Shown piece by piece: positions 13,227 through 20,439 of a DNA stretch of 64,000 bases (its first letter is position 1; each line of letters opens with the position of its first letter). Origin of the DNA: OCS116 cluster bacterium AG-430-B22 (GTDB lineage Bacteria > Pseudomonadota > Alphaproteobacteria > MED-G09); the NCBI GenBank assembly GCA_003209955.1, contig QCOD01000001.1, positions 33,330-97,329 on the forward strand, written 5' to 3'. The notes under the pieces were generated by a model, which saw only the letters and a list, made by a program, of their open reading frames with translations, ran no database searches and was not told the DNA's origin. The position numbers and the translations under genes were made by a program.

Positions 13227-14135
13227 CTAAACTAGAGAAAAAACAATAAAAAAAGAAAAAGGTATTATCAATATCCATGAAATAATTGGGTAAATTAATT
13301 TCTTTGTATCGATATCTTTCAAATTCTTAAATGCTATTTGTGTTCCAACCGAAAATAACCCAATAAGGAGTAAAATTTGACTAACATTCCTAATAATTTC
13401 TTTTTCTATAGGTGTATTGAAATAAGACCCTGAAATAATTGCTAAAATAAAAAAAATAACAAACATTGGGAATGGAAAATGTTTTTTATCACTCTTCTCA
13501 GTTATGCTTATTAACATAATTAATGGTATTAACCATAAAGTTCGCCCTAGTTTTAATGTTGATGCAGTCTCCAGAGACTCATACCCGTAACTCATTGAAG
13601 CGCCTATGACCGCGCTAGTATCATGAATTACAGTTGCGGCCCATGCTCCAAATTGACTTTGAGATAAATTTAATAATTCCCCTATAAATGGAAAAAGAAA
13701 TATTCCTAAGGCATTTAAAATGAATATTATTGATAAAGCTGCAGCTAAATCTTCATTTTTTGATTTAATGATTGGCGCAATAGATACCATTGCCGTTCCA
13801 CCACAAATTGATGATCCAGAAGCAACTAAAAGAGAATAATTTTTATCAATTTTAAGTGAAAGACCTAATAAAAAAACAAATGTAAAAGTTAATACAACAA
13901 ATATTGATATTGCAGGCATGTATTGAAAGCTAGAATTAATTGCTGATTGATAATTAATTGAAAAGCCAAGAAGAACTATTCCAGTCTGTAAAATAATTGT
14001 TGAATATTTTTTTGTAATAAATTCATTTTTAGTTTTAAACATCAGACTAAAAATTATTCCACCAAATATCGCTAAAATAGGTATTTTAAAGAAAATACTT
14101 ACAAATAAAAAAATGATTAAATAGAAATAGATCAT
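13227..14135 (-). CDS. polytopic inner-membrane protein, possibly YeiH/UPF0324 (putative sulfate exporter) family
   Basis: About 10 hydrophobic segments; GSSICGGTAM motif reminiscent of UPF0324; family assignment tentative. Confidence 0.35.
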   Translation of the reverse strand: MIYFYLIIFLFVSIFFKIPILAIFGGIIFSLMFKTKNEFITKKYSTIILQTGIVLLGFSINYQSAINSSFQYMPAISIFVVLTFTFVFLLGLSLKIDKNYSLLVASGSSICGGTAMVSIAPIIKSKNEDLAAALSIIFILNALGIFLFPFIGELLNLSQSQFGAWAATVIHDTSAVIGASMSYGYESLETASTLKLGRTLWLIPLIMLISITEKSDKKHFPFPMFVIFFILAIISGSYFNTPIEKEIIRNVSQILLLIGLFSVGTQIAFKNLKDIDTKKLIYPIISWILIIPFSFFIVFSLV

Positions 14136-14224
14136 AGTTGAATAATATCATTATAAATCAAATTATCTCTTAATTATTTCTTTCTAAACTATTTAAAATA
14201 TATAATATTAATAATTAAGTAATA

Positions 14225-14836
14225 TTGGAGAAGATGATGACCAAAGAAGTAGATTTTTATTTTGATTTTGCTAGTCCTAATGCATATTTAAGTCATAAAG
14301 TGCTTAAATCAATTTCTGAAAAAACGGGGGCTAAAGTTAATTATATTCCTGTTCTCTTAGGAGGTATATTTAAGGCTACTAATAACAACCCACCAATGGT
14401 TCAATTTGCTGAGGTAAAGGGCAAATTAGAGTATCAATCACTTGAAATAACGAGATTTATTGAAAGACATGGTTTGCAATCTTTTCAAATGAATCCACAC
14501 TTTCCAGTAATAAGTTTACAAATTATAAGAGGCGCAATTGCTGCTGAAATGGATGGCTATCTTGAAGAATATATAGATAAAGTATTAGTTCATATGTGGG
14601 AGCAACCCAAGAAAATGGATGATCCAGAAGTCATCAAAGAAGCATTTGTTGAGTCAGGATTAGATGCCGATAAATTGATGAGTCAAATGCAGGATCCTGA
14701 TGTTAAAGCAAAACTAATATCTAATACTGAAGCAGCCGTTGAAAGAGGGGTTTTTGGTATACCAACTTTTTTTGTTGGTGATCAAATATTCTTTGGAAAA
14801 GACACATTATGGCAAGTTGAAGAATTACTTATATAA
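14225..14836 (+). CDS. 2-hydroxychromene-2-carboxylate isomerase family protein (DsbA-like thioredoxin fold, NahD-like)
   Basis: VDFYFDFASPNAYLS near the N-terminus and FGIPTFFVGDQIFFGKDTL near the C-terminus closely match NahD/HCCA isomerases. Confidence 0.8.
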   Translation: MEKMMTKEVDFYFDFASPNAYLSHKVLKSISEKTGAKVNYIPVLLGGIFKATNNNPPMVQFAEVKGKLEYQSLEITRFIERHGLQSFQMNPHFPVISLQIIRGAIAAEMDGYLEEYIDKVLVHMWEQPKKMDDPEVIKEAFVESGLDADKLMSQMQDPDVKAKLISNTEAAVERGVFGIPTFFVGDQIFFGKDTLWQVEELLI

Positions 14837-14872
14837 TTTGACTTTATCTAATTAGTTTAATACTTACGCGTT

Positions 14873-15157
14873 ATGTGGAATTTAAAAAATAAAATATTAG
14901 TTTTCTTTATAGCTATGTTATTTTTCACTTCGGTTTCAGCCGAAGAACTTCTACATGACCATCACAAACATCATGATCATATATCTGTTGAAATAGATTG
15001 TGATTTTTGTGTTAATGCAGCTCCTGAGTTTGAAAATGAAGTTTTTAATTTTGGAGACCAATTCCTTAATATTTCTGAGTTTATTCAAACTCTTGATAAT
15101 CAATTTTTAGACAACAATACTTCTGAATTTTATTCCAGAGGACCTCCTCAAATTTAA
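14873..15157 (+). CDS. small secreted His-rich protein (candidate metal-binding partner of the downstream receptor)
   Basis: 94 aa; N-terminal signal peptide (ILVFFIAMLFFTSVSA), then HDHHKHHDH immediately after the predicted cleavage site; 38 bp upstream of the His-rich TonB-dependent receptor on the same strand. Confidence 0.5.
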   Translation: MWNLKNKILVFFIAMLFFTSVSAEELLHDHHKHHDHISVEIDCDFCVNAAPEFENEVFNFGDQFLNISEFIQTLDNQFLDNNTSEFYSRGPPQI

Positions 15158-15195
15158 ATTTCATTTCTTATGTAAATTTAAAAAAGGAGATAAAA

Positions 15196-17523
15196 TTGAA
15201 AAATTTACTTTTAGCGCTTTTGTTTGTGGGTGCTTTAATAATACACAATGAAAAAATATATTCGAGTGAGATAGATGAAATTGTAGTTACATCATCTTAC
15301 ATTGATAAAAACCTATCAGACCTAGACGATCCAATTCATGTAATTGGGGGAGATGATGCCACTTTTGACTCTACAGTAAGCTTAGGAGAGTCACTTGATA
15401 ATCTTCTTGGAGTTCAATCCTCAGATTTTGGTGCAGCTGTTGGTCATCCTATCATTCGTGGTTTATCAGGTAATAGAGTTAGAATTATGAATAATGGTAA
15501 AACTCTAAGAGATGTTTCTACTATTGGTGACGATCATATGAATGAGGTTGATTTAAATGATATCCAACAAATAGAAATAGTTAGAGGACCATCATCACTT
15601 CTATATTCTAGTGGGACTGTTGGAGGCATAATAAATATCATTGATAATACAATTGCTAGAGAAGATTTTAAAGAACCCAAATTTAATATTGCTTTAGAAA
15701 CCCAATCTGTTAACGAAGGAGAAGCTGGAAGTTTTTCTTATCAAAATAACATTGGTGGTTTCAATGTAAGTTTGGCTTATAAAGATTCTCAGTTTGATAA
15801 TTATGATATTCCAAATGGTGCAATCATTCATGCCGAGGATGAGCATCACGATGAAGATGAGCATCACGATGAAGATGAGCATCACGATGAAGAAAATCTT
15901 GGTTACTTAGAAAACTCTGACTTTGAATCAACATCACAAAGATTTGGTATTTCAAAAACAGGTGAATGGGGATATTTCGGTATTTCTTATAAGAATTCTG
16001 AAAGTCTTTTTGGTGTTCCATTCCACGGTGATGGTCACGAAGATCATGGAATGCATGGTAAAGAAGAACATCATGAAGAAGAAGCACATCATGATGAAGA
16101 TGAGCATCATGATGAAGATGAACATGAAGGTCATGATGAGCATGAAGGTGAAAGAATTTTTTCCAATACAGAATCTGATATTTTTGATGTTGAAGGTTCT
16201 TATGTCGTTAATAGTTCTTGGCTGAAAAAGATTAATTATTTCTTTAGATCTTCAGATTATCTTCATACTGAGCAACATGCTGAAGAAGAACATCATGAAG
16301 AAGAAGAGCATCATGACGAAGATGAGCATCATGACGAAGATGAGCATGATGAACATGGTCATGCTGAAGGCCCAACAAATTTTGAAAATAAATCTAAGGA
16401 GTTTGGTTTTGTTTTTGATTTAACAAATGATGTTGTTAAGCAAAAATTATCTATCAATTATGTAGAAGAAGAAATTTCTATAGTTGGTGCTGAAGCATTT
16501 ATGAGGCCAACAGATAATGAAGAATTATCCATTGGTTATTATTTGTCTAAAGAATTTGGATTATTCGATGTTGATTTCGGTATTAGGTATGATGATATTT
16601 CTCGTAAAGGTTCATTAGCTCATCATGAAGAAGAGCATCACGATGAAGACGAACATCACGATGAAGACGAACATCACGATGAAGACGAACATGAAGAGGA
16701 AATTGACTTCTTTAATAAAGATTATAGCGAAACAAGTTTTGCTGTTAATTTTTCAAGAGAAGTTAATGATAACTTTACAGTTAGTCTAGGCCTAGCAAGA
16801 GTTGAAAGAGCGCCATCACCAGTAGAGTTATATATGAATGGAGCTCATTTAGTTACTGGTCGCTTTGAAGTCGGCAATACAGAACTTGAATCTGAGAGCG
16901 CTAACAACATTGATTTGAATGTATTTTATAAAAATAATAATTTCTCTTTTAGAGGTAATATATTCAAAAATGATATTGATAACTACATCTATCTACAAGA
17001 TGAAACGGAAGAAGAGCATGAAGAGCATGAAGAGCATGGCGATCATGATGACCATGGTGGTCTTATATTAGCAAACTTCCTGCAAAAAGATGCTGAACTT
17101 GAAGGTTATGAATTTGAAGTTAGTCAGATTTTTACTTTTGATAGAGGTAATCTTACTTTATCATTCGGCAGAGACTCAGTTACAGGCGAGTTTAAGAATG
17201 GAATGAATATTCCAAGAATTGTGCCTGCAAGAAATATTATAACTGTCTCTTACTCAGAAGATAATCTTCTAGCAAGATTGACTTATAAAGATGTTGAAGA
17301 GCAAAATGATATTGGAGAAGGTGAAACAGCAACTGAAGCTTATGAAATGCTTGATTTTTCTTTAAAGAAAACTTTTGTTCTTAATAATCAAAATGAAATA
17401 AGTTTATCATTGTTTGGTAAGAATCTTCTTGACGAAGTGGCCAGAAATCACGCTTCTTTTGTTAAAAATGAAGTTCCTTTACCAGGAAGAAATTATGGTC
17501 TTAAATTAAATTATAAATTTTAA
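15196..17523 (+). CDS. TonB-dependent outer-membrane receptor with five His/Asp/Glu-rich insertions
   Basis: Signal peptide; TonB-box-like EIVVTSS; plug-domain motifs (IRG..G..RV....NG); C-terminal terminal Phe (KLNYKF). Five low-complexity insertions (EHHDEDEHHDEDEHHDE and variants) sit in the barrel region. TTG start with AAGGAGA RBS 5 nt upstream. Confidence 0.8.
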   Translation: MKNLLLALLFVGALIIHNEKIYSSEIDEIVVTSSYIDKNLSDLDDPIHVIGGDDATFDSTVSLGESLDNLLGVQSSDFGAAVGHPIIRGLSGNRVRIMNNGKTLRDVSTIGDDHMNEVDLNDIQQIEIVRGPSSLLYSSGTVGGIINIIDNTIAREDFKEPKFNIALETQSVNEGEAGSFSYQNNIGGFNVSLAYKDSQFDNYDIPNGAIIHAEDEHHDEDEHHDEDEHHDEENLGYLENSDFESTSQRFGISKTGEWGYFGISYKNSESLFGVPFHGDGHEDHGMHGKEEHHEEEAHHDEDEHHDEDEHEGHDEHEGERIFSNTESDIFDVEGSYVVNSSWLKKINYFFRSSDYLHTEQHAEEEHHEEEEHHDEDEHHDEDEHDEHGHAEGPTNFENKSKEFGFVFDLTNDVVKQKLSINYVEEEISIVGAEAFMRPTDNEELSIGYYLSKEFGLFDVDFGIRYDDISRKGSLAHHEEEHHDEDEHHDEDEHHDEDEHEEEIDFFNKDYSETSFAVNFSREVNDNFTVSLGLARVERAPSPVELYMNGAHLVTGRFEVGNTELESESANNIDLNVFYKNNNFSFRGNIFKNDIDNYIYLQDETEEEHEEHEEHGDHDDHGGLILANFLQKDAELEGYEFEVSQIFTFDRGNLTLSFGRDSVTGEFKNGMNIPRIVPARNIITVSYSEDNLLARLTYKDVEEQNDIGEGETATEAYEMLDFSLKKTFVLNNQNEISLSLFGKNLLDEVARNHASFVKNEVPLPGRNYGLKLNYKF
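15835..15894 (+). repeat. in-frame tandem 18-nt repeat block 1: (gagcatcacgatgaagat)x3, encoding (EHHDED)3
   Basis: Three perfect or near-perfect 18-nt units at 15841-15858, 15859-15876 and 15877-15894, read directly from the sequence. Confidence 0.9.
16030..16150 (+). repeat. in-frame His/Asp/Glu codon repeat block 2 (degenerate 18-nt units)
   Basis: gcacatcatgatgaagat / gagcatcatgatgaagat / gaacatgaaggtcatgat / gagcatgaaggt, preceded by ggtcacgaagatcatgga...gaacatcatgaagaagaa. Confidence 0.8.
16270..16368 (+). repeat. in-frame His/Asp/Glu codon repeat block 3
   Basis: gaagaacatcatgaagaagaagagcatcatgacgaagatgagcatcatgacgaagatgagcatgatgaacatggtcatgct. Confidence 0.8.
16618..16698 (+). repeat. 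in-frame tandem 18-nt repeat block 4: gagcatcacgatgaagac then (gaacatcacgatgaagac)x2
   Basis: Units at 16633-16650, 16651-16668 and 16669-16686, followed by gaacatgaagag. Confidence 0.9.
17007..17060 (+). repeat. in-frame Glu/His codon repeat block 5: (gaagagcat)x3 then ggcgatcatgatgaccatggt
   Basis: EEEHEEHEEHGDHDDHGG encoded by 9-nt repeats read directly. Confidence 0.8.
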
Positions 17524-17547
17524 CTAATATTAAAATTTATTTGAGAT

Positions 17548-17588
17548 AATGCTCAGAGTTCTTTAGCTCTGGGCATTATTTATTTTAA
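17548..17588. terminator. rho-independent terminator between convergent genes (TonB-dependent receptor + / MFS transporter -)
   Basis: aatgctcagag-ttcttt-agctctgggcatt inverted repeat (one G-U wobble) followed by atttatttt. Confidence 0.55.
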
Positions 17589-17603
17589 CCAAGATACAAA
17601 GTC

Positions 17604-19043
17604 TCAATCCTTTTCTATTTCTAAAGATTTAAGAGCTTCTTCATGTGAAGATTTAGAAATATTATAGAAAAACATACATGAAATTGATGCTAAAGTTAAA
17701 ATTGGACCTAAGATGGCTTGAAAAAATGCCAATCTATAAATTGGTTCCTGCATCTCTAACACTGTTGGGTTTTTTACATCAAAACCTACAAACTCCAAAA
17801 GAAAACCAACAAATACAACGCCTAAACCACTTATTATTTTTTGAATAAAGCCATTCGCAGACAAATAAAGACCTTCATCTCTTCGTCCAGTCGTTAATTG
17901 ACCATCTTCAACAACATCATAAACCATTGATATTACTAATATCCATCCTGCTGTTCTTAAAAAATAACCAACGCATAAAAATATAATAATTGTCCACCAA
18001 AGAGCATCTGTTCCATTTTCAGGAAAAATTTGCATTGGTACATATGGGTCCAATAATCTTAACCAAATTGGCATTGGCTCAACAATGAGATTGATAAGAA
18101 ATAAACCTATGGCAAAGTTTTTTTTGCTCTTTCCTCTAGCTAAAGGTGCCGCAAAGAATCCTGCTAAAACAACTGGTAGGGCTATAATAATTGGAAATAA
18201 GCTTATTTCCTCGGGAGTCCATTGCCAAAAATAAATACTAAAATAATTATCTAAACTTGAAAATATTCCAATATTAAGAGCTAAAATAGTTCCAGCAGTA
18301 AAAAGAACTAACCAATTTCTATTTGAAAGAGACTCAACTATTTCTTTCCAAAATTCAGAAAATTTAAAACTCTTAGGATCTGGCTCAACCATGTCAGGAA
18401 TATATTTATGTGTTGATAGTGAGGATATTAGGCCAAAGATAATGATTAAAAAACAAGCTAAAAGACCAAATTTTGGATAGGCTTCAGGATTTAAAAAAGC
18501 ACGAGAACCTGAAAATGTTTCAGTTTCCACAAGAAAAAAAGCTAACATTGCATAGCTCATAATCCCCAAACCCATATTGCCGTATAAAACACCATAACCA
18601 CTTAAGGTGTTACGCCTTTCATAATCAGTAATAAGTTCAGGACCAATTGCTGCTCTTGGTGTCTCATAAAAAGTAAACAATGTTCGCAAAAGAATTGATG
18701 CAATTAATAATTTTATAAAAAGTGTAGTTTGAGAAGTATCTGTAGGAATTGAATAAAGAAAATAAGCACTTAAACCAAAAGGTATTATTGCTAAATACAC
18801 AAATGGATGTCTTCTTCCCCATTTTGATTTAAAACGGTCTGACCAGGCGCCAACCAAGGGGTCTGAGATTGCATCAAATACTAGAGCAATAGCAAGAGCA
18901 TAGGATGCCAATAATGGTTCGAGACCTAAAATCTGATTAAAATAAACTAGAAGCCATGATCCAAACAGTAAATTCTTAACCCCAACAGCGCCAGATCCTA
19001 ATGTGTATAAGTGCAAGGTGTTGTTTGAAATATTATTGCTCAT
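17604..19043 (-). CDS. MFS transporter, glycoside-pentoside-hexuronide (GPH):cation symporter family
   Basis: 12 TM-like segments; GPH signature D-R-x-x-x-K-W-G-R-R-H-P after TM2 (DRFKSKWGRRHPF). Confidence 0.7.
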   Translation of the reverse strand: MSNNISNNTLHLYTLGSGAVGVKNLLFGSWLLVYFNQILGLEPLLASYALAIALVFDAISDPLVGAWSDRFKSKWGRRHPFVYLAIIPFGLSAYFLYSIPTDTSQTTLFIKLLIASILLRTLFTFYETPRAAIGPELITDYERRNTLSGYGVLYGNMGLGIMSYAMLAFFLVETETFSGSRAFLNPEAYPKFGLLACFLIIIFGLISSLSTHKYIPDMVEPDPKSFKFSEFWKEIVESLSNRNWLVLFTAGTILALNIGIFSSLDNYFSIYFWQWTPEEISLFPIIIALPVVLAGFFAAPLARGKSKKNFAIGLFLINLIVEPMPIWLRLLDPYVPMQIFPENGTDALWWTIIIFLCVGYFLRTAGWILVISMVYDVVEDGQLTTGRRDEGLYLSANGFIQKIISGLGVVFVGFLLEFVGFDVKNPTVLEMQEPIYRLAFFQAILGPILTLASISCMFFYNISKSSHEEALKSLEIEKD

Positions 19044-19092
19044 GAGATATGCCTTAGTAATAGAAATATATTAATTTACAATGATTAAATCC

Positions 19093-20439
19093 TTATTGAG
19101 TTTCAAGAATTCTTTCATTTTTTGTATTTTTTAATTGATCACGAATTTTTGAGTGCATTTCTTCTGTGATAGGATATTTCCATATAATAAATATAGCGGT
19201 TAAAAAGAAGAAAGAGGGTAGTGTAGAAAATAGAAACTTAAGACCAAATAATTGACTCGGACTATTATTAACATCTAACCCTGTATTAAAGTTAATCCAA
19301 GATAATGCTGTTAATGCAAGCCAGGTACCTATAGAGCCTGCTAATTTTGAAGTTAATGACCAAGATGAGAAAAATAAGCCGGATCTATTTTCTCCGCTTT
19401 TTACTGTATCTAAATCAATAACATCTGCCTTCATTGAATTTGGTAATGCTGCAAAACCCCCGGCAGCAAAACCCGTTGTAATGGTAATAGGGAGCATCCA
19501 CCAAAAATCACCTTCACCCAAAAGAAGGTAAAAAGGATGTGCAAACGCAATCATTGCAAAACTGCAAATATATGCCTTATGCTTTCCGATTTGCTTTGAT
19601 AACCAAACCCAAAACGGTACAGCAATGATATTTGTTAGATAAAAAAACGTAAGCATAAATATAGCCATTTCTTCAGCTTTAAGAACATAAGCAATAAAAA
19701 ATAAATATAGTGGAATTGTTATAGAAAAAGCTATTCCTCCAAACATAAAAGCCATTATTAATCTTTTAAATGGAGAGTTTTCCAACATAATTTTGAAACC
19801 CTTAATTGGAGAGATGTTTGATTGAACATAATCCTTAGACTCAGGAACTTTTAATACGGTTAAAAACACACATATAGGCATAATAATTACACTTGCAATC
19901 CCAACGATATATAAAACATTTGTGCTACCGCCAAGACCAAAAAAAACGAGAGCTATAGTTGGGATAAGTTGAGCGCTTAGACTACCAACTACTCCAGAAA
20001 TTGATCTCCACCCTGTAATTCTCGATCTTTCATTATAATCTGGCGATAGCTCGGCACCCCAAGCATAGTAGGGTATAATGAGCATGGTTGTTCCTATTGA
20101 AAGAAGAAACATCCATAAAAATAGATGAAGAGCTCCAGCTCCTTCAGGAGGAATAAAGAGCATATAAATACTTACCATTAGTAAGGGTGTAGCTATTGCA
20201 ATCCATGGTCTTCTTCTTCCCCATTTTGTATTAGTTCGGTCATTGATGTAACCAACTACTGGGTCAGTAAAAACATCAAAAATACGGACCGCTAAAATGA
20301 TATTTGCTGCTAAGGCTAAAGGAACTCCCATTTCACCAGTGTAAAATTTAGGGATAAAAACAAGGATAGGAAAAAGGGCAATATTTATAGGCATCTCTGC
20401 CAAGCTGTAATAAAACAAAGTTGATTTTTTTAATTTCAA
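19093..20439 (-). CDS. MFS transporter, GPH:cation symporter family (paralog of the adjacent gene)
   Basis: DRTNTKWGRRRPW signature; 12 TM-like segments. Confidence 0.7.
   Translation of the reverse strand: MKLKKSTLFYYSLAEMPINIALFPILVFIPKFYTGEMGVPLALAANIILAVRIFDVFTDPVVGYINDRTNTKWGRRRPWIAIATPLLMVSIYMLFIPPEGAGALHLFLWMFLLSIGTTMLIIPYYAWGAELSPDYNERSRITGWRSISGVVGSLSAQLIPTIALVFFGLGGSTNVLYIVGIASVIIMPICVFLTVLKVPESKDYVQSNISPIKGFKIMLENSPFKRLIMAFMFGGIAFSITIPLYLFFIAYVLKAEEMAIFMLTFFYLTNIIAVPFWVWLSKQIGKHKAYICSFAMIAFAHPFYLLLGEGDFWWMLPITITTGFAAGGFAALPNSMKADVIDLDTVKSGENRSGLFFSSWSLTSKLAGSIGTWLALTALSWINFNTGLDVNNSPSQLFGLKFLFSTLPSFFFLTAIFIIWKYPITEEMHSKIRDQLKNTKNERILETQ

Follow-up and report, generated by a model that had tools for sequence, protein, structure and literature searches.

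Arrest peptides that sense a metal are so far known from two systems only, CruR and CutF, both of which respond to copper. CruR (Bp2923, DUF2946) from Bordetella pertussis, described by Roy et al. 2022 (PMC9426467), is encoded first in its operon, ahead of a TonB-dependent transporter (TBDT) gene, and holds an export signal, a CXXC motif and, three residues from its C-terminus, the sequence RAPP, at a rigid spacing of 45 residues. As long as copper is absent, ribosome arrest at RAPP keeps the operon expressed; copper, sensed via the CXXC motif, ends the arrest and with it the expression (PMC9426467). A comparable pair of genes is found in the alphaproteobacterium OCS116 cluster bacterium AG-430-B22, within a stretch of 64,000 nucleotides (GenBank assembly GCA_003209955.1, contig QCOD01000001.1, positions 33,330 to 97,329 of the forward strand), which is referred to here as the window and numbered from its first letter. 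It consists of a small open reading frame (ORF), hereafter the leader (14873-15157, + strand, 94 aa), and the gene of a TonB-dependent receptor (15196-17523, + strand, 775 aa). The two are interpreted here, with a probability of about 0.65, as a self-contained metal-acquisition module made of a ZnuD-family receptor and a CruR/CutF-type regulatory leader ORF.

In the second copper system, CutF-CutO from Rhodobacter capsulatus, the stalled ribosome melts a stem-loop that shields the downstream ribosome-binding site (RBS) (bioRxiv 10.1101/2025.02.05.636593). Like the leader of the window, CutF is exported as a nascent chain and combines a Cys motif with a proline arrest motif at the C-terminus, in its case CXXXC and PPP; it is sensitive to elongation factor P (EF-P) and induces a detoxification enzyme at high copper. 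RAPP and RGPP, in turn, have been reported as the most robust, EF-P-refractory arrest cores; proteomes in general are short of them, small secretory proteins carry them at the C-terminus more often than expected, and they are found in excess upstream of genes for TonB-dependent receptors (Fujiwara et al., PMC12992588). The same C-terminal R-A/G-P-P core is found in ApdA/ApdP and SecM, small exported proteins whose stalling regulates a downstream cistron (PMC10951233, PMC12992588). These, however, monitor export and control sec or yidC genes, whereas the leader of the window has a metal-ligand motif and precedes a metal receptor.

On the receptor side, the best match is ZnuD from Neisseria meningitidis (4RDR; PMC4557270, PMC2895646), which has a buried high-affinity zinc site formed by Asp-99, His-100 and Glu-340 together with His-499 (PMC4557270), and a flexible His/Asp-rich loop 3 regarded as a "fishing net". 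The ZnuD homologue of Bordetella adjoins znuABC/zur (Stork et al.), and no paper in the literature searched links BfrG, the transporter controlled by CruR, with that homologue. Zinc scavenging by TBDTs is also known from another environmental alphaproteobacterium, Caulobacter crescentus, where ZnuK and ZnuL are repressed by Zur via defined boxes with no leader reported (PMC4176598); no such box was found here.

The leader of the window starts with an export signal (aa 1-23; 14873-14941, +), read from the sequence as an n-region with K5 and K7, a hydrophobic core, and a cleavage site between VSA and EE; by inspection, cleavage would fall after MWNLKNKILVFFIAMLFFTSVSA and before EE, leaving a mature peptide of 71 aa, and the run HDHHKHHDH follows. 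This run (aa 28-36) and the motif CDFC (aa 43-46) make up a putative metal-sensor segment (14954-15010, +). The C-terminus reads ...FYSRGPPQI, in which RGPP (aa 89-92; 15137-15148, +), two codons before the stop, is predicted to arrest the ribosome. An earlier, sequence-only reading of this region had placed both ORFs exactly where they are found and had taken the small one for a dedicated soluble His-rich partner of the receptor, making no mention of CDFC or of the RGPP end.

Almost every related locus has, just upstream of the receptor gene and on the same strand, an ORF of about 86-118 aa; co-occurrence of this kind in related genomes is what the sequence-only reading had suggested looking for. 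In 67 of the 74 loci checked, spanning PS1/OCS116, SAR86, SAR92, and Halieaceae, this ORF is an equivalent of the leader and ends in (R/Q)(A/G)PP followed by one to six residues (two residues in 45 cases), the motif being RAPP in 52 loci, QAPP in 9, and RGPP in 6. The loci without it are truncated contigs or involve receptors at just ~28% identity. The leader accompanies the whole receptor family of at least 40% identity, including a representative at 46%, and occurs sporadically at ~28% (L073, L079); the three more distant multi-His-loop receptors that were looked at lack it. Two members depart from the usual form: the ORF at L055:587-802 ends without reaching a RAPP motif, perhaps because of a frameshift or an error in the assembly, and the one at L032:5505-5831 has IRAPP followed by an unusually long tail of 15 residues.

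Within the leader family, conservation is concentrated in very few positions. Aligned with one another, 34 diverse members share 24% identity on average; H28, C43, P91, and P92 are invariant, C46, R89, and A90 are kept in at least 90%, and nothing else is conserved but the export signal, a hydrophobic N-terminal segment being visible by inspection in all aligned homologues. Residues H28, C43, and C46 of the putative sensor segment are therefore family-wide features, and the His-rich run is restricted to the clade of the window. The distance from CxxC to the arrest motif is 40-43 aa in all 56 of the 67 loci that have a CxxC, and 42 in the window. In some SAR92 and other variants the second Cys is lost and His clusters are present instead (HSHSDH..C). 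The idea of a dedicated His-rich partner finds no support in this comparison, as what the 67 loci keep is the signal, one His, CxxC, and R(A/G)PP. By this pattern, and by analogy with the characterized systems, the small ORF is probably a metal-sensing, ribosome-stalling leader and not a soluble partner.

In common with CruR-BfrG there is a small first ORF with an export signal, a CXXC motif, and a RAPP-type motif near the stop at fixed spacing, placed ahead of a metal-uptake TBDT. The leader of the window differs from CruR in lacking a DUF2946 profile match, in having RGPP instead of RAPP, and in the invariant His upstream of CxxC; what follows it also differs, being a ZnuD-like receptor with His-rich loops and without a PepSY_TM gene after it. 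Pfam and NCBIfam scans of the leader yielded no meaningful family, and the leader of the window had no PF11162 match at E<=10. The leader ORF has no recognizable Shine-Dalgarno (SD) sequence of its own.

The second line of evidence concerns the RNA between the arrest codons and the receptor start. The receptor ORF has a TTG start with GGAG 6 nt 5' of it, and an SD-sequestering stem-loop is predicted at 15144-15189 (+), in which CUCCU (15144-15148), belonging to the Pro-Pro codons of the arrest motif, pairs with AGGAG of the receptor SD (15185-15189) around an inner AU-rich hairpin (15153-15182). The fold of 15120-15215 has a minimum free energy of -17.2 kcal/mol. The pairing is predicted to recur: the Pro-Pro codons are at least partly paired with the SD zone in 51 of the 67 loci, and in additional loci it is the neighbouring Arg/Ala codons that pair with the SD. 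When the arrest peptide was recoded synonymously according to the codon usage of each locus (n=64), the real duplexes between arrest codons and SD averaged -9.1 kcal/mol against -7.2 for the recodings (Wilcoxon p 3e-8), and in the clade of the window the real duplex ranks at 2-5% among its recodings.

The stem occurs in two registers, and the base that follows GGAG differs between them. If the U opposite the A of GGAG belongs to a CCU Pro codon, G follows in 18 of 23 distinct loci; if it belongs to a GCU Ala codon, as in Halieaceae, an alphaproteobacterial sister clade, and several SAR86 lineages, C or U follows in 16 of 19 (Fisher p 1.2e-5). Judged from these alignments, a synonymous site covaries with the flank of the SD. 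For an RBS unmasking of the CutF type, a predicted stem, its recurrence, the synonymous control, and covariation are thus all found computationally, and the geometry matches that of the RBS-shielding stem of CutF, with the difference that here the arrest codons themselves supply the anti-SD strand. Sequestration of the SD is the output predicted here, unlike the Rho-dependent termination of CruR. A Rho/rut-type mechanism was also considered and is unlikely, because the intergenic region is just 38 nt long and AT-rich in the window; in most loci it measures 34-60 nt. Rfam, scanned over 14000-17800 at E<=1, returned no match, so no known riboswitch or leader is present there.

A different arrangement is seen in four SAR92/Porticoccaceae loci (L010:5925-6000, L013, L059, and L067). 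In these, the intergenic region is 71-82 nt long and contains a GC-rich hairpin followed by a U-run, similar to a terminator or an attenuator; the partner of the SD (AAGGA) is the region of the stop codon and not the Pro codons, and the leaders carry HSHSDH and single Cys residues in place of CxxC. From these sequences, they may represent a transcription-attenuation variant of the leader switch.

By homology, the receptor is a ZnuD-family TonB-dependent transporter. It holds a signal peptide, a TonB box read from the sequence as DEIVVTS (aa 27-33), a Plug domain (aa 42-145, Pfam E 3.4e-17), and a barrel (TonB_dep_Rec_b-barrel, 7.1e-24) of 22 strands in the structural model, which are the hallmarks of this transporter class. 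ZnuD (4RDR) is by far its best match in the PDB, with E 4e-38 by sequence and 2e-57 by profile, and it also comes out best in the fold comparison (Foldseek E 1.8e-30, TM 0.62-0.75), followed by the copper transporter OprC. The best NCBIfam match is likewise the zinc-piracy receptor ZnuD (NF038289), at 226 bits against a cutoff of 950 bits, so the protein is to be seen as a relative of ZnuD and not as an orthologue; the identity between the two is ~18-20%. These matches agree with the comparison to ZnuD-type receptors made by the sequence-only reading.

Three of the four zinc ligands of ZnuD are invariant in the receptor family, as judged in an alignment of 36 sequences with residue equivalences taken over a 14-residue chain offset. 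D113-H114 in the apical loop of the plug (15532-15537, +) correspond to Asp-99/His-100, and H551 (16846-16848, +) to His-499, by alignment to 4rdr. Glu-340 falls in a stretch that cannot be aligned; the invariant E359 (16270-16272), at the top of strand b7, is a candidate for it by topology only. The receptor contains 51 His and no Cys, and therefore lacks the CxxxM-HxM thiol/thioether copper site of OprC; the OprC-type family TIGR01778 was absent among its NCBIfam matches at E<=0.01. It also differs from ZnuD by carrying five His/acidic loops where ZnuD has one, by lacking a Cys pair in L3, and by having no Zur box, regulation by a leader peptide being predicted instead.

The His/Asp/Glu content of the receptor is far beyond chance, and all five His/Asp/Glu strings quoted in the sequence-only reading are present in it. 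A composition scan delimits H/D/E-rich segments at aa 210-235, 287-320, 357-392, 473-504, and 603-622. At the DNA level, four of them are in-frame tandem arrays with an 18-nt period and the fifth has a period of 9 nt. The inserts are assigned to loop L2 (15802-15918, aa 203-241, between strands b3 and b4), with an EHHDED array whose 18-nt repeat (15838-15893, 3.1 copies) is 100% identical; L3 (16024-16149, aa 277-318, b5-b6); L4 (16285-16365, aa 364-390, b7-b8), also a tandem repeat; L6 (16624-16698, aa 477-501, b11-b12); and L8 (17002-17064, aa 603-623, b15-b16), with EEH repeats of the 9-nt period, all of them on the + strand.

In the AlphaFold2 (AF2) model of the receptor (mean predicted local distance difference test score, pLDDT, of 58.8, with barrel strands mostly at 70-90 and a poor plug), all five inserts fall in odd-to-even strand connections, and every even-to-odd turn has just 2-7 residues. 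According to this model, all five are extracellular loops. For L3 and L6 the assignment is also anchored to the crystallographic loops of ZnuD, independently of the model: the start of the second insert (GVPFHGDGHED) aligns with GLPAHSHEYDD of ZnuD inside loop 3, making it the positional homologue of the His/Asp-rich extracellular loop of that protein, and the end of the fourth insert coincides with the end of ZnuD loop 6. The surface location proposed by the sequence-only reading is borne out by both the strand parity and these anchors. Antisense ORFs of 50-100 aa and four minus-strand terminator-like matches at 15644-16750 (-) are artefacts of the His-repeat DNA.

When homologues are clustered at 90% identity, the 120 clusters nearest to the receptor (50-74% identity, proteins of 715-777 aa) include 117 with exactly five H/D/E-rich segments at equivalent positions, and the inserts are consequently a conserved trait and not lineage-specific drift, a possibility that the sequence-only reading had recognized as fatal to its claim. 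Among the nearest relatives, length varies in the loops only, in steps of 6 aa (L2 has 24, 30, or 36 aa); the loops contain 12-51 gap columns, the core 0-7. The comparison indicates that the composition of the loops is maintained while their copy number drifts by slippage. Across the broader superfamily (~30-37% identity) the number of such loops ranges from 0 to 6, with three or more in 27 of 128 full-length representatives, which places five loops at the upper end of a continuum. The earlier statement that they go well beyond characterized receptors holds insofar as no characterized receptor with five loops was found in the literature searched, but their rarity was overstated.

Taken with the precedents, these observations can be assembled into a working scheme. 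By default, the SD of the receptor would be sequestered by the codons of the arrest motif, as the computed pairing predicts. A ribosome translating the leader would stall at RGPP, its footprint enclosing the 5' arm of the stem; since the stalled ribosome covers the Pro-Pro codons, the proposal is that the SD is laid open for translation of the receptor. In analogy to CruR, a metal bound to the nascent His...CxxC segment, which at arrest would lie ~42-60 residues from the peptidyl-transferase centre and thus near or beyond the tunnel exit, may shorten the stall, the hairpin would re-form, and synthesis of the receptor would fall at metal sufficiency. This polarity, opposite to that of CutF, is expected because the target is an uptake receptor. 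At the cell surface, in a role modelled on loop 3 of ZnuD, the five acidic His-rich loops could form a fishing net of low affinity, in which a divalent transition-metal ion is concentrated and from which it is passed to the Asp-His...His pocket. Inferred in this scheme are that stalling takes place, how it depends on a metal and with which polarity, and which metal is involved.

Several results weigh against this interpretation. The leader cannot be placed in DUF2946 from its sequence: only one of 34 members matched PF11162, at E 0.2, and none of the 66 leader matches of the profile search is annotated as PF11162, all being hypothetical proteins. The CXXC-to-motif spacing, equally rigid in both families, is 42 aa here (40-43 in the family) against 45+-2 in CruR, and the short AT-rich intergenic region contrasts with the 162 nt, GC-rich one of CruR, a long and structured region of that type being absent from the window. 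For the RNA, the single-sequence fold has a z of just -1.8, and RNAalifold on a MAFFT alignment of 35 leaders returned no consensus pairs, a null result explained by the SD not being column-aligned and by the two registers of the stem, for which register-aware tests were used instead. Inherent complementarity between CCN Pro codons and GGAG, together with the shared ancestry of the loci, inflates the p-values of those tests. In the receptor model, moreover, the plug region has low confidence. Regarding transcription, the best Zur-like match within 300 nt upstream has mismatches at 6 of 18 positions, so that Zur repression of the ZnuD type finds no sequence counterpart. Scans of the window and the upstream regions for Zur, Fur, and NikR consensus sequences found nothing near the operon, including 14837-14872 and 15158-15195, where the sequence-only reading had proposed to look for such boxes. 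To these points must be added a conflict between the signals for zinc and those for copper.

Two readings that dispense with a regulatory leader or with functional loops can be weighed against the same data. The 94-aa product could be a secreted or periplasmic His-rich metal-binding protein, either a metallochaperone or a proteinaceous metallophore, working with the receptor; its signal peptide, its His-rich mature N-terminus, and its constant co-occurrence with the receptor would fit, and CutF too was first conjectured to be a copper chaperone. However, the His-rich stretch is not kept outside the clade of the window, and a folded binder would be expected to conserve a core, not a mere H, CxxC, and R(A/G)PP at 24% identity. 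RGPP/RAPP, a strongly disfavoured motif that impedes translation, is placed at a fixed distance from both the stop and CxxC, and the codon choice of the motif is tuned to pairing with the SD. The lack of a recognizable SD on the leader ORF points the same way, CruR being barely translated and undetectable. A partner protein is accordingly improbable. Even less probable is the reading in which the His/acidic loops are low-complexity expansions produced by slippage and functionally neutral, and the cargo of the receptor is a different one, for example haem or a metallophore. Microsatellite-like 18-nt repeats with up to 100% unit identity and copy numbers that differ among near-identical relatives would be the mark of such a process, yet the same five loops stay H/D/E-rich in the 117 clusters across two proteobacterial classes despite differing repeat units, their composition is held while length drifts, they are placed on the extracellular side only, and the pocket ligands of ZnuD are invariant.

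The more serious alternative keeps the architecture and changes the metal: a copper-uptake module like CruR-BfrG, in which the CxxC leader senses copper and the loops capture Cu(II) from seawater ligands. Both characterized relatives of the leader sense copper, via CXXC or CXXXC, and DUF2946 genes are cofit with copper receptors. OprC is the second-best fold match, and in two SAR86 genomes a Sco1/SenC copper-chaperone gene lies 8-17 nt upstream of the leader (L019:4927-5556, identified by Pfam at E 5e-38, and L023:4956-5582, identified by the shared motif CPDICP). A thiophilic MerC-type permease gene, furthermore, adjoins the module in 16 of 80 loci. On the other side stand the absence of a TIGR01778 match and of any Cys in the receptor, and the retention of three of the four zinc ligands of ZnuD. 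Where leaders have lost the second Cys they have acquired His, a change more in keeping with Zn/Ni/Co than with Cu(I), and in Caulobacter a Zn/Cd efflux operon activated by Zur is likewise headed by DUF2946 genes. In addition, Zur-like palindromes are found upstream of some relatives: TGTTATAACATAACA at -18, abutting the leader, in Pseudoteredinibacter isoporae (L073), and TGTTATAACA upstream of the leaderless relative P0187. The signals in favour of zinc, namely ZnuD as the nearest relative, the kept pocket residues, the presence of hard or borderline ligands only in a Cys-free receptor, and the exchange of Cys for His in leader variants, make Zn2+ the most likely ion, although its chances are put somewhat below even. 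Copper is a possible but distinctly less favoured candidate, and another metal or a mixture comes slightly behind it. The copper-uptake reading as a whole is thus doubtful without being far-fetched. A tentative but somewhat better placed extension of the two-gene module is that the leader represents the first zinc-responsive, or at least non-copper, arrest-peptide sensor, giving a ZnuD-type receptor Zur-independent translational control with the arrest codons as the anti-SD strand, in SAR86, SAR92, OM60/Halieaceae, and PS1/OCS116, which are among the most abundant heterotrophs of the ocean. A CruR-like sensor would then have been re-tuned by the invariant His plus CxxC, or by His clusters plus a single Cys.

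The genetic neighbourhood adds further observations on metals, and attempts to infer the metal from it failed: contexts are variable, and only the MerC-like protein and the occasional Sco1 recur. The MerC-family inner-membrane protein (PF03203, ~135 aa) is encoded, for example, at L005:5281-5691, L009:5277-5687, L029:8320-8721, and L038:8181-8600. Four members scanned match PF03203 with E ~1e-23 to 1e-25, and the rest were called by tblastn at E 2e-20 or better. The gene either abuts the leader upstream or lies directly downstream of the module, in two proteobacterial classes, and no MerC-family gene is present in this window. With C-x2-H-C in its first transmembrane segment and a Cys/His-rich C-terminal tail, its product may be a thiophilic inner-membrane permease for the metal of the module. 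A palindrome ATGATAC-N3-GTATCAT is common to L047, L049, and L054 (one SAR92, two Halieaceae), 65-120 nt upstream of the leader start. Motifs of this kind suggest that an extra Fur-family transcriptional layer may exist in some lineages.

In the window itself, the leader is preceded by a gene for a DsbA-like thioredoxin-fold protein (PF01323, no obvious signal peptide; 14225-14836, +), which ends 36 nt before it and is syntenic in L001-L004. Co-transcription of the leader with this gene is possible; DsbA-family genes have been associated with RAPP upstream ORFs by Fujiwara et al. (PMC12992588). A weak, low-confidence candidate promoter lies at 14809-14844 (+), with ATGGCA-17-TATAAT at 14809-14837 and a TTGACT at 14839-14844 that is clade-conserved together with downstream sequence; match counts in the promoter and terminator scans are no higher than in shuffled sequences. 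Two tandem MFS_2 transporter paralogues of the sugar/glycoside-pentoside-hexuronide type (17604-20439, -) converge on the 3' end of the receptor gene, and the operon is therefore limited to leader and receptor. In many SAR86 loci (L015, L016, L018, L020, L022, and others), a second TonB-dependent receptor of ~860 aa is encoded on the same strand ~100 nt downstream, its Plug domain being confirmed in one.

The G+C content of the window is ~32%, and the nearest genomic relatives of the receptor, at 95% identity, belong to single-cell genomes of the OCS116/PS1 alphaproteobacterial clade. The wider family, at 40-56% identity, comes from SAR86, SAR92/Porticoccaceae, and Halieaceae/Luminiphilus gammaproteobacteria. 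Since this alphaproteobacterial receptor is 50-56% identical to those of SAR86, SAR92, and Halieaceae and the leader travels along with it, the comparison suggests that the whole two-gene module has been laterally transferred between proteobacterial classes. Cultured carriers include the SAR92 strains H231, H921, and HTCC2207, and Pseudoteredinibacter isoporae.

Upstream ORFs with RAPP/RGPP ahead of TonB receptors, as well as CruR and CutF, have already been published. New are the leader family, invisible to Pfam, with its shifted spacing and its added invariant His; the arrest codons doubling as anti-SD; the ZnuD-type multi-His-loop receptor as the target of a leader; and the distribution of this pair in abundant marine oligotrophs. 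In the literature searched, no multi-His-loop TBDTs of SAR86 or marine groups, no ZnuD-linked leader, and no zinc-responsive arrest peptide have been described.

If the interpretation is true, the principle of metal-sensing arrest peptides would be extended to the ZnuD-like receptor class, probably to a new metal, and to a very compact design in which the stall codons are at the same time the anti-SD strand. The copy-number-variable His/acidic loops suggest, in turn, that repeat slippage can tune the capacity for metal capture at the cell surface. The mechanism would be placed in the genome-streamlined lineages that dominate surface-ocean heterotrophy, where trace-metal acquisition shapes biogeochemistry, and it would provide metatranscriptomics with a marker of metal limitation that can be read from the sequence.

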